Virus record (IMG/VR): IMGVR_UViG_2703718812_000024
Reading direction: 5' to 3' (one strand)
From: a virus
Lineage: Duplodnaviria > Heunggongvirae > Uroviricota > Caudoviricetes
Length of the DNA stretch: 4,645 nucleotides
The translations under genes and the position numbers were made by a program. Positions 2,724-4,207 of this stretch are shown here, piece after piece; positions within the stretch are counted from its first letter, which is position 1; each line of letters opens with the position of its first letter. The notes below the pieces were generated by a model. It was not told the DNA's origin. It was given only the letters and a program-made list of their open reading frames with translations, and did not search any database.

Positions 2724-2975
2724 TAAATTTCCATGTGTGACATATAAAAGCCACCAGCGCAGAAAATAAAACGCCTCACGTTATGCAAAACGGGTTAACC
2801 ATCGTGATGCCTTGCCGCATTCAATTAACGGCAGGTAAAAAAATACCCGCAATGCAATAACACTACGGGCCATTAACGTAATATAAGGAGTTAACCGATG
2901 TGTATTGTATACAGTCGTGTGCATATTGTCACAGGCAACAGGCATCCGCGCCAAATACCCGCCAGAGAAAATCAG

Positions 2976-3005
2976 TTGATCGCCAGTATCAAAAATGGCT
3001 ATGAT
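2976..3005 (+). promoter_or_regulatory. Candidate sigma70 promoter of Icd-like module A: TTGATC (2976-2981), 18-nt spacer, TATGAT (3000-3005)
   Basis: The -10 is a 5/6 match to TATAAT and the -35 a 4/6 match to TTGACA. The same two hexamers with the same 18-nt spacing recur at 3451-3480, and both lie exactly 279 nt upstream of the respective Icd-like ATG. Confidence 0.45.
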
Positions 3006-3066
3006 TCCCGCGCACCTTATAAAACGGGTGTCGGGATTGGAACCCCGCTGGAGATAAAGGCGATAC

Positions 3067-3089
3067 AGACGCCGAACGCGTCTTTTTTT
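3067..3089 (+). terminator. Hairpin plus T7 run (terminator or attenuator-like) in the module A leader
   Basis: AGACGC (3067-3072) and GCGTCT (3078-3083) form a 6-bp stem around a CGAAC loop, followed by seven T (3083-3089). It lies about 62 nt after the candidate -10, so a short RNA of about 78 nt (roughly 3012-3089) is possible. Confidence 0.55.
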
Positions 3090-3155
3090 GTATCGGCGCA
3101 CACGCACACCTTATCAATGGTGGGCTGTATGGGGCTGACTTCGGTCAGGCTGGTT

Positions 3156-3165
3156 TCCTTTATCG
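3156..3165 (+). promoter_or_regulatory. Anti-Shine-Dalgarno element of module A (TCCTTTATCG), perfectly complementary to CGATAAAGGA at 3235-3244
   Basis: 10-nt perfect complement to the sequence overlapping the SD of the Icd-like gene. It is also complementary over 8 nt to an upstream SD-mimic GATAAAGG at 3053-3060. The orthologous element in module B covaries (see 3634-3643). Confidence 0.45.
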
Positions 3166-3254
3166 CCAGTAGTTCCAACTCCGTGCAGTCCACCGCCAGC
3201 GAGATTGGAACCTCCAGCGGTGGGTATATCCCAACGATAAAGGAGGCTGCCATC

Positions 3255-3443
3255 ATGGCTACTACCCCTGCCCTCGTACATTCTCAGACTGCCTTTATCT
3301 GGCGTTTTATCACCTTCGGCACGTCAGAACGTCAAATTATCCACGTAACCGCCTGGACGGAACGCGAAGCGCGTAACCGTTGCCCGTCCGGTTGTGTCGC
3401 TGTATTCGCTGCCCGTATTCGTCAGGGGGTGAGTCATGCTTAA
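3255..3443 (+). CDS. Icd-like small protein, copy A (62 aa; host cell division inhibitor Icd-like family of P1 / P4-like elements)
   Basis: ATG at 3255 preceded by a strong SD AGGAGG (3241-3246, 8-nt spacer). The protein MATTPALVHSQTAFIWRF...TEREAR...FAARIRQGVSHA shares WRF, TERE(A/T)R and ARIRQGV(S/R)HA motifs with copy B. It is in frame with a longer open frame from 2898; I consider the short form more likely, but this is unresolved. Confidence 0.6.
   Translation: MATTPALVHSQTAFIWRFITFGTSERQIIHVTAWTEREARNRCPSGCVAVFAARIRQGVSHA
3411..3430 (+). repeat. 20-bp exact direct repeat GCCCGTATTCGTCAGGGGGT (partner at 3868-3887) at the 3' ends of the two Icd-like genes
   Basis: Exact 20-mer in both copies, followed in each by GTCATGC, while the rest of the duplicated modules is much more diverged. 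Confidence 0.8.
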
Positions 3444-3450
3444 AAACATG

Positions 3451-3480
3451 TTGATCGCCTCTTCTTTCGGGCTGTATGAT
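3451..3480 (+). promoter_or_regulatory. Candidate sigma70 promoter of Icd-like module B: TTGATC (3451-3456), 18-nt spacer, TATGAT (3475-3480)
   Basis: Same hexamers and spacing as module A. The 9-mer TTGATCGCC is identical in both copies. It begins 8 nt after the stop of Icd-like copy A. Confidence 0.45.
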
Positions 3481-3535
3481 GCCGGAGTCGCCCACATGGC
3501 GACCGGGTTTAGCAGCCTGAATACTACAGCGGACA

Positions 3536-3565
3536 GCCGCTTACATTCCGATATGCGGTTTTTTT
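3536..3565 (+). terminator. Weak hairpin plus T7 run in the module B leader (degenerate counterpart of 3067-3089)
   Basis: GCCGC (3536-3540) pairs with GCGGT (3555-3559), with one G-U pair and a large loop, followed by seven T (3559-3565). The T-run sits at the same offset from the promoter as in module A (108 vs 107 nt). Confidence 0.3.
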
Positions 3566-3633
3566 GCGTCCGTAAACCTACCCATACCCGCATTATGGCG
3601 GGGCGTAACGGGGGAGCCTTTGCGCTCGCTGGT

Positions 3634-3643
3634 TCCTGTAGTG
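3634..3643 (+). promoter_or_regulatory. Anti-Shine-Dalgarno element of module B (TCCTGTAGTG), perfectly complementary to CACTACAGGA at 3711-3720
   Basis: 10-nt perfect complement overlapping the SD (AGGAG 3717-3721) of Icd-like copy B. It is also complementary to an upstream SD-mimic ACTACAG at 3523-3529. The sequence differs from module A, but complementarity is preserved in all three elements. Confidence 0.45.
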
Positions 3644-3729
3644 CCAGTCTGCTAACCCCGTTACGTCTCGCCACCATGTTTAGCAGCGTAGTAGCGAGAC
3701 TCCTTAATTTCACTACAGGAGCCTTTCAC

Positions 3730-3900
3730 ATGGCTGTATCCGCACGCCCTTACTTTGTCTGGCGCTTTATGCAGTGCCATGAAAAACAAACCTCACCCTT
3801 TACCGCCACGGCAGCAACAGAACGCGAAACCCGCGCACAACTTCCGCATACCCATCTGATTTTTGTCGCCCGTATTCGTCAGGGGGTACGTCATGCGTGA
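3730..3900 (+). CDS. Icd-like small protein, copy B (56 aa)
   Basis: ATG at 3730 preceded by AGGAG (3717-3721, 8-nt spacer). The protein MAVSARPYFVWRF...TERETR...FVARIRQGVRHA is paralogous to copy A. Its stop overlaps the start of the next gene (ATGCGTGA). Confidence 0.6.
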   Translation: MAVSARPYFVWRFMQCHEKQTSPFTATAATERETRAQLPHTHLIFVARIRQGVRHA

Positions 3901-4207
3901 TGTGTGTAACACCAGAATACTTGAACAACTGGTTACAACCATAAAAGCAGCTGACGCACGGGAAGCGAGAGCGATGTTTGATGATGCTGACTTCTACGCC
4001 CGCAAATTGCTTGAAGGGCTGGCTATCACAGGGCGCTTACTTTCTGGCATGAGTGACAGCATTGATCCTGACATGGACGAACTGCGCAGCCTGGGCGATT
4101 CCATCGCTGTTACGGCTGAACTTGTGGCCGGATTCAGTGAGGTTGTGGAGGTGTACAACTGGCGTTGCCGTAACGGAGATATCAGTACTGATTATCGCCA
4201 TTCGTGA
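3893..4207 (+). CDS. Hypothetical protein (104 aa) translationally coupled to Icd-like copy B; possibly the Ash-family partner usually found after icd-like genes in P4-like elements
   Basis: The ATG at 3893 overlaps the Icd-like stop (ATGCGTGA, stop 3898-3900). The ORF track gives an alternative in-frame start at 3863. The Ash-family label comes from recalled synteny only; I do not recognise the sequence. Confidence 0.55.
   Translation: MRDVCNTRILEQLVTTIKAADAREARAMFDDADFYARKLLEGLAITGRLLSGMSDSIDPDMDELRSLGDSIAVTAELVAGFSEVVEVYNWRCRNGDISTDYRHS

Follow-up and report, generated by a model that had tools for sequence, protein, structure and literature searches.

A probable IsrK-type leader RNA in one of two tandem P4/P1-type RNA immunity modules of a predicted phage satellite

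Gene content and satellite context of the locus

We analysed a stretch of 4,645 nucleotides (the window) from a virus assigned to Caudoviricetes (IMG/VR record IMGVR_UViG_2703718812_000024). A P4-type integrase and an AlpA-type gene precede two modules of one kind, repeated in tandem, which we call modules A and B. The genes and the promoter of module A are listed here; the RNA features are given below, where they are discussed.

216-1481: P4-type tyrosine integrase, in the left part of a small integrative element
1486-2382: ORF without a known family, following the integrase
2520-2723: AlpA/HTH_17-type gene
2898-3443, + strand: eta-like ORF A, 181 aa, with its own Shine-Dalgarno (SD) sequence TAAGGAG (2884-2890); in frame with icd-A and enclosing the promoter, the IsrK-type RNA, the C4-type RNA and the mRNA leader
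about 2976-3443: module A, first of the two tandem repeats
2976-3005, + strand: sigma-70-type promoter of module A, with TTGATC (2976-2981), an 18-nt spacer and TATGAT (3000-3005), inside eta-like ORF A
3255-3443, + strand: icd/kil-like gene A, 62 aa, the proposed translationally controlled target
3436-3900, + strand: eta-like ORF B, whose ATG overlaps the stop codon of icd-A and in which icd-like gene B is nested
3451-3900: module B, second of the two tandem repeats
after module B: a 104-aa ORF, then a DUF4222 gene

The product of icd/kil-like gene A, named "host cell division inhibitor Icd-like protein" in RefSeq, is 37% identical to P1 Icd and can be aligned with the kil portion of the P4 "cI ORF". 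The longer ORF (2898-3443), which contains icd (3255-3443) in frame, likewise aligns with this old P4 "cI ORF", across the RNA region and into kil. The P4 eta/kil arrangement occurs twice in the window, chained by overlapping stop and start codons in a manner suited to translational coupling. Beyond the two modules, an ORF at 3893-4207 overlaps the stop codon of icd-B.

A first-pass annotation, made from the sequence alone, had placed a -10 element at 3000-3005 and a transcription start near 3012. TATGAT is indeed found at these positions, and the predicted start falls on the first position of the Rfam isrK model. Both promoter hexamers of module A are kept in about 28 related loci, with a variable spacer between them, and they reappear identically before module B (3451-3480). 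The module A promoter is the counterpart of the constitutive promoter inside the P4 immunity region.

A relative in E. coli OkiPb01678, 95.6% identical over the two-module query (2900-3950), adjoins a tRNA-Ile gene. This element continues with genes for a RepA-type helicase, SSB, PerC and Mor, and spans about 8 kb. Judged by its gene order, it is a predicted PICI/P4-like satellite, and the window module is assigned to a roughly 8-kb PICI/P4-like satellite beside an E. coli tRNA-Ile gene.

The leader RNA at 3012-3089 and its C4-type partner

Downstream of the module A promoter, inside eta-like ORF A, we found a candidate leader RNA with the following parts.

3012-3089, + strand: IsrK-family leader RNA (Rfam RF01394), the predicted equivalent of P4 seqA plus t1 and of the P1 a1/b1 leader
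3012-3031, + strand: hairpin 1, in which 3012-3017 pairs with 3026-3031
3032-3047, + strand: hairpin 2, in which 3032-3035 pairs with 3044-3047 and the loop displays a1 (3037-3043, TTGGAAC)
3053-3060, + strand: b1 (GATAAAGG), which repeats the word of the SD region and is complementary to b' in the C4 loop; it lies 6 nt 5' of the terminator stem
3067-3089, + strand: intrinsic terminator, equivalent to P4 t1, with stem 3067-3072/3078-3083 and a T-run to 3089

In an Rfam covariance scan, isrK (RF01394) matched 3012-3088 over the whole model (positions 1-77 of 77) with 61.5 bits and E = 7.2e-12, against a gathering score of 50. For comparison, the same model scores 60.8 bits in P4 (8615-8692, minus strand, comprising seqA, a GC hairpin and a U6 run), 79.3 bits in Gifsy-1 and 61.8 bits in the Stx phage TL-2011c. 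The isrK architecture is present in the interval: two hairpins at the 5' end, then a linker and, last, an intrinsic terminator. The structure line of the cmscan match is the same as the minimum free energy (MFE) fold. The folding energy of the 78-mer alone is unremarkable (z = -0.87); the MFE fold nonetheless reproduces the family structure. Taken alone, the terminator hairpin has a predicted energy of -7.4 kcal/mol, and it is present in 97% of the ensemble. The hairpin and T-run that had been noted at 3067-3089 are in place, and the full-length, above-threshold match agrees with the proposal of a promoter-to-terminator RNA of about 78 nt.

The leader lies directly upstream of a complementary C4-type RNA on the same strand, as members of the isrK family do. 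As in a P4-type leader, it stands between an eta-internal promoter and a CI-type RNA and carries a complement to the pairing words of the latter, called seqB in P4. We consider it very likely that 3012-3088/89 is an IsrK-type leader RNA of a P4/P1-type RNA immunity module, which would serve both as a site for C4 and as a target mimic. For the 78-nt species itself, its stability and any Hfq binding in the host of the window, we infer from homologues what would be expected.

The partner RNA and its targets in the downstream mRNA are as follows.

3113-3200, + strand: C4/CI-type antisense RNA of module A (Rfam RF01695, 77.6 bits against a gathering score of 45)
3205-3211, + strand: a2 target (TTGGAAC) in the mRNA leader
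3235-3246, + strand: b2 target over the SD sequence (CGATAAAGGAGG) of the icd/kil-like gene; the b2 match covers 3235-3244 and runs into GGAGG, with the ATG at 3255

The C4 RNA of module A starts 24 nt downstream of the isrK match, and its internal helices co-vary. Its word b' lies in a hairpin loop (3154-3165; pairing word 3157-3164) and a' in the adjoining junction (3172-3178). Complementarity in module A is exact over 7 nt for each of a1, a' and a2, over 8 nt for b1-b' and over 10 nt for b2-b'. A second downstream target of the seqC type is present, with a2 at 3205-3211 and b2/SD at 3235-3246 at the icd/kil ribosome-binding site. The first-pass annotation had recognised that GATAAAGG occurs identically at 3053-3060 and 3236-3243 and that both copies are complementary to 3156-3165; the upstream copy is b1, and the second word, a1, had been missed.

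Which segment corresponds to the functional antisense RNA had been left open, and the size of the 78-nt RNA had been likened to that of the 77-nt P1 c4 RNA. Since the C4 model matches at 3113-3200, this question is settled: C4 is 3113-3200, and 3012-3089 is its partner and target mimic. The closeness in size is a coincidence, and the similar length is the only point in favour of the 78-nt RNA being itself a c4-type antisense repressor. The C4 model does not match 3012-3089, which carries sense words like those of the SD region and not antisense words, and we give this identity almost no credence.

We also considered the Rfam model c4-a1b1 (RF03163, gathering score 46.7 bits), which scores 51 bits in P1. 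In the window its matches stay below the gathering score, with 18.0 bits at 2999-3051 and 32.4 bits at 3474-3523. In P1, P4 and Gifsy-1 the c4-a1b1 motif overlaps the 5' two thirds of the isrK matches, so the two models describe one element.

Two further pairings were considered and set aside. One is an 11-nt perfect complement of the C4-A loop at 2014-2024, within the ORF at 1486-2382, which might have been an additional trans target. This complement is missing in the closest relative (L001) despite an identical C4 loop, and we treat it as chance. Seven other distinct loop types from A-type loci found their own b1/b2 sites or nothing, with no extra target. The other is a long-range helix between 3044-3053 and 3215-3223, which appears in the MFE fold of the read-through RNA. 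By inspection of the alignment, it is not kept in loci with other sequences.

Covariation of the pairing words and the second module

To compare related modules, we collected 80 IMG/VR loci via the Icd-like protein, of which about 28 carry an A-type module (22 distinct sequences). A scan of genome contigs with the same protein had given two loci only, and we relied on the IMG/VR loci. Modules A and B, aligned from two sequences, gave alignments too poor for models, and no covariance model was built.

Among the A-type relatives the scaffold, with its promoter hexamers and T-run, is kept, and the words vary, with at least six a words and at least seven b words. The a and b words assort independently between loci, and so they have probably been exchanged by recombination. 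The T-run is invariant, and one terminator stem pair changes from CG to GC in 9 sequences. Helices of the isrK region are 93-100% paired in the 22 distinct relatives; hairpin 1 is 100% paired in all 22, with one pair altered on both sides (UG to AU). Pairing between the words in the 22 distinct A-type sequences is listed here; the covariation counts are of sequences and not of independent events.

a1-a' helix: 7 positions, 100% paired, 5 changed on both sides
b1-b' helix: 8 positions, 97.2% paired, 6 changed on both sides
a'-a2 helix: 7 positions, 100% paired, 5 changed on both sides
b'-b2 helix: 10 positions, 93.6% paired, 7 changed on both sides

As a control, we slid the partners by 1-3 columns, which reduced pairing of the whole tested structure to 35-48%. 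The Stx phage TL-2011c has the module (isrK as above, C4 77.4 bits) with different words that are again matched. The three-way match, maintained through many word types, is strong comparative evidence that the leader pairs with C4. We also performed RNAduplex on whole leader and C4 sequences in cognate and non-cognate combinations; the cognate combination was best, but random shuffles overlapped it, and we give the result no weight. In none of the 22 sequences is the b2 match shorter than the b1 match, and in 15 it is the longer of the two. The leader is therefore predicted to be the weaker partner of C4, and a decoy RNA would need to be in excess.

These comparisons bear on the possibility that the interval is simply a piece of the eta-like or "Ash family" ORF (2898-3443), conserved on account of the protein. 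In nearly all A-type loci, no stop codon interrupts the icd frame over at least the 360 nt that precede the icd ATG, and the open stretch often exceeds 1000 nt, whereas stops close both other frames after tens to a few hundred nt. Pfam Phage_ASH matches residues 35-118 of eta-like ORF A, which is the RNA region, and RefSeq annotates the region as "ash family protein". However, the covariation of the helices and the three-way matching of a1/a'/a2 and b1/b'/b2 lack a protein-level explanation, the Rfam models match at E values of about 1e-12 to 1e-14, and the promoter and T-run are conserved inside the ORF. In addition, the P4 precedent is one of dual use, not of either/or (PMC10111431). A purely protein-coding role is, in our judgement, very improbable.

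The second module offers a comparison within the window itself, with the following features.

3451-3565, + strand: module B promoter (3451-3480) and IsrK-like leader (3487-3565), with a1 at 3509-3515 (TTAGCAG) and b1 at 3523-3529 (ACTACAG)
3591-3678, + strand: C4-type RNA of module B (RF01695, 73.5 bits), with b' at 3634-3643 and a' at 3649-3655
3680-3900, + strand: targets a2 (3680-3686) and b2/SD (3711-3720), followed by icd-like gene B (3730-3900)

Module B has the same geometry as module A with different words, which again match three ways, and these two C4-type RNAs are the only matches of RF01695 in the window. Its leader scores 36.6 bits with the isrK model, under the gathering score, and 32.4 bits with c4-a1b1. 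Pairing across 13 B-type modules amounts to 100% for a1-a' and 95.6% for b1-b'. Relative L001, otherwise near-identical to the window, differs in the a word of module B at all three sites. A P1-type hairpin, GCGG-ACAN-CCGC, is present in module B, and the P1 a word TTGACAG was found among the relatives of this module.

We next asked how the leaders might fold with and without access to a1/b1, using the predicted probability of the terminator as a thermodynamic proxy. In module B, a predicted anti-terminator hairpin (AGCGG/CCGCU) shares nucleotides with b1 and is incompatible with the terminator, whose probability rises from 0.04 to 0.98 when a1/b1 is blocked. The closing pair of this anti-terminator shifts from AU to GC together with the b word. 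Some A-type variants also switch on blocking of a1/b1, with terminator probabilities going from 0.02 to 0.99 in one locus (L006) and from 0.15 to 1.00 in another (L013). For module A of the window the proxy gives 0.97 free and 1.00 blocked, and a C4-dependent anti-terminator in this module accordingly has no thermodynamic support. The t1 terminator of P4 reportedly needs CI and seqA and autoregulates CI, a result ascribed to Briani and co-workers (Mol Microbiol, 2000). In silico, P4's own t1 folds constitutively too, and the folding proxy therefore does not discriminate.

Relation to known systems and a proposed mechanism

Among the closest known systems is the P4 immunity leader (Deho/Ghisotti laboratory), with which module A shares an eta-internal promoter, an isrK-type leader with seqA (a1 and b1), a Rho-independent terminator, a CI RNA, seqC and a kil gene ("MATT...") in the eta frame. 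In P4 the C4 model matches CI at 8420-8507, followed by a2, by b2 over the SD and then by the "GGAGGCUGCCAUCAUGGCUAC" start region, as in the window. The window also has an AlpA-type gene and a P4-type integrase upstream. The two differ in the gap between leader and C4 (24 nt in the window, about 107 nt in P4), in their replication genes (RepA-type helicase and SSB in the window, alpha primase in P4) and in the duplication of the module with a second specificity. IsrK and C4 have been described as structural homologues of P4 seqA and CI (Barquist et al., PMC3632133), and isrK and C4 profiles match Gram-negative PICIs (Mageeney et al., PMC10111431). In P4, a constitutive promoter lies inside eta, interactions of CI and seqA cause quick termination, and read-through yields Kil; full-length Eta is translated only when a late promoter further upstream is used, and this translation keeps termination from occurring (PMC10111431).

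The immI operon of P1 and P7 (Citron & Schuster 1990) has the same order of promoter, a1, b1, c4, a2, b2 (over the ribosome-binding site) and icd. The P1 leader gives an isrK-like match of 35 bits that contains the annotated a1/b1 and ends in a hairpin and U-run. Unlike in the window, ant follows icd in P1 and the promoters carry a C1 operator, and module A reaches only the 18 bits given above on the c4-a1b1 model.

In Salmonella Gifsy-1, IsrK (Padalon-Brauch 2008) was detected experimentally as a 77-nt sRNA (PMC4825925). The Gifsy-1 and window RNAs belong to the same RF01394 family and share three hairpins with a terminal terminator, with a C4-type RNA (STnc1160, "orf45") following at about equal distance and a1 in the loop of hairpin 2 pairing with a'. 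We mapped nt 26-32 of Gifsy-1 IsrK (UUGGCGU) to a1 and nt 158-164 of the transcript (ACGCCAA) to a', and the compensatory pairs G28A/C162U and G31A/C159U reported there (Hershko-Shalev 2016, PMC4825925) therefore lie in the a1-a' helix. The "orf45" AUG, located at position 107, is that of the conserved AUGG found at the C4 5' end. The systems differ in several respects: the window element is an integrase/AlpA/RepA-helicase satellite, while Gifsy-1 is a lambdoid prophage; the downstream gene is icd/kil-like in the window and anrP in Gifsy-1; the a and b words differ; and the window has two tandem modules and an RNA region inside an eta-like ORF. In Gifsy-1, short IsrK supplied in trans raises downstream translation 114-171-fold, and IsrK mutants lose the effect (PMC4825925). 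Co-expression of STnc1160 with IsrK left toxicity unrelieved, unlike what a simple titration model would give (PMC4825925).

Drawing on these systems, we propose the following mechanism for module A. The promoter would fire inside the eta-like ORF, with transcription beginning near 3012. The terminator at 3067-3089 would stop some transcripts, giving the leader of about 78 nt, and the rest would read through to give C4 (3113-3200) and the icd/kil-like mRNA. The b' and a' words of C4 would bind the mRNA leader at a2 and b2 and cover the icd/kil SD, so that the downstream satellite genes stay silent. The a1/b1 words of the leader would bind the same C4 surfaces: when C4 meets the nascent transcript, this may boost termination and autoregulate C4, as in P4. 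The released leader could act as a weaker target mimic that titrates C4 or opens the C4 fold of the read-through RNA, as Gifsy-1 IsrK does. Finally, the whole RNA switch would be overridden when an upstream promoter leads to translation through the eta-like ORF. The main role of the leader may be in cis, where C4 would control termination on it; the balance between cis and trans action and the processing of C4 are inferred.

A stricter version would make the leader a cis-only attenuator, in which C4 pairs with the nascent a1/b1, raises termination at 3089, autoregulates itself and blocks read-through, and the released 78-nt RNA is an inert by-product. The layout is that of P4 (seqA, terminator, CI), and the predicted switch of module B, with its co-varying closing pair, and of some A-type variants would fit such a device. 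On the other hand, no such switch is predicted for module A of the window, the short RNA of Gifsy-1 is strong in trans and its mutants are inactive, and roles in cis and in trans are compatible with each other. We hold the cis-only version to be a real possibility, though we lean against it. The earlier suggestion that the 78-nt RNA could compete for the anti-SD element is a reasonable one: the more than 100-fold effect in trans in Gifsy-1 and the compensatory pairs in a1-a' are a precedent for it, but in the window the leader may act mainly in cis and not as a free competitor.

With two such modules in series, one could imagine modules A and B as a two-lock gate before the replication genes, the leaders as diffusible anti-immunity signals and the independent shuffling of a and b words as a code that sets immunity combinatorially among PICI-like satellites and Stx-type prophages. 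We think this extension unlikely. Were the two-lock reading true, a co-resident element transcribing the same a/b words could titrate the C4s and induce the satellite. The a'/b' combination of module A is absent from all phage records, and a specificity shared with a helper phage was rejected, as no phage record carries the module A words and those of TL-2011c differ.

These results may be of use in annotation. An RNA immunity switch underlies the "ash family protein" and long "Icd-like" ORF calls of RefSeq, and the models tell the repressor RNA from the mimic RNA. The diversity of specificities, recombining in appearance, could help to predict cross-immune satellites and prophages. As the leader belongs to the known IsrK family with a published mechanism, its novelty is low; the RNA family, partner, pairing, P4 equivalence and presence in PICIs are already published. 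Less documented points may be that the tandem modules differ in specificity, that a and b words assort freely and that the word combination is rare. The combination in module A was found in 7 of 5426 complete E. coli genomes.

An open frame across the RNA region

The Pfam family Phage_ASH (PF10554) matched the translation of the region that holds the promoter, the IsrK-type leader, the C4-type RNA and the mRNA leader of module A, and the same region has been called an "ash family protein" pseudogene in RefSeq. The overlap with the RNA region was found in the window and in related loci:
2898-3254, window: Phage_ASH / ash family protein over the RNA region
7999-8325, L001 (the closest relative): the same overlap
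upstream of position 1501 in the related loci L004, L005, L018, L024 and L036: the same overlap

Because almost all of the related loci keep the frame in phase with icd open across the RNA region, and the open stretch often exceeds 1000 nt, the ash-annotated region looks, from its sequence, like an eta-like gene, that is, one resembling P4 eta in enclosing the promoter and embedded RNA genes, and thus like a case of dual use rather than simple mis-annotation.

Tandem modules and a predicted switch in module B

Two tandem immunity modules, each with its own a and b words, are present:
2976-3443: module A
3451-3900: module B

They are joined by a stop/start overlap (ATG at 3436, stop at 3441-3443), and a second such overlap lies at the downstream end of module B (ATG at 3893, stop at 3898-3900). 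The latter ATG, overlapping the icd-B stop codon, starts a 104-aa ORF (3893-4207) in the same position as ant in P1; neither this ORF nor the 298-aa ORF at 1486-2382 matched a Pfam family. Three consecutive Icd-like genes are present in other E. coli genomes, and in L001, which is 95.6% identical, the module B a word differs from that of the window at all three sites.

The module A a'/b' combination (3140-3185) is rare: of 5426 complete E. coli genomes, 7 contain it as an exact match (two copies in one of them), and no phage record does. A query of 2900-3950, which covers both modules and their icd-like genes, gave megablast matches in about 1050 genomes.

Two hairpins in module B are predicted to be mutually exclusive:
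3528-3541: anti-terminator hairpin, AGCGG-ACAG-CCGCU, overlapping the leader word b1
3536-3559: terminator, GCCGC...GCGGU plus U7

The predicted probability of the terminator rises from 0.04 in the free RNA to 0.98 when a1/b1 are blocked. Among relatives, the closing pair of the anti-terminator hairpin co-varies from AU to GC, and P1 has the same arrangement (GCGG-ACAA-CCGC).

Possible alternative pairings of C4-A

In the closing stem of C4-A, the 3' strand could instead form another helix:
3190-3196 with 3217-3223: CCACCGC with downstream GCGGTGG

The target word a2 would then lie within a loop of 20 nt. Across 22 sequences this helix is 100% paired, with two pairs changed on both sides in 5 of these, and the unprocessed read-through RNA may adopt it as an alternative fold.

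An 11-nt perfect complement of the C4-A loop, GATAAAGGAAA, occurs at 2014-2024 within the 298-aa ORF. This match is probably due to chance, since the closest relative shares the C4-A loop but lacks the complement.

Other icd-like genes and neighboring elements

A second group of icd-like genes (L042, L063, L067, L075, L078 and L002) had no isrK or C4 match at E ≤ 0.01 upstream of position 1501. Directly 5' of their SD lies a conserved GC-rich hairpin (…AACGCCCCGCAGTGC…ACGGGGCGTCTAACC…), which may be a different control element. Separately, Stx phage TL-2011c (L086) carries an Rfam sRNA-Xcc1 match (3539-3622, 79.6 bits) about 135 nt 3' of the stop of a Rha-family gene (2758-3405), itself downstream of the phage's isrK-C4 module.
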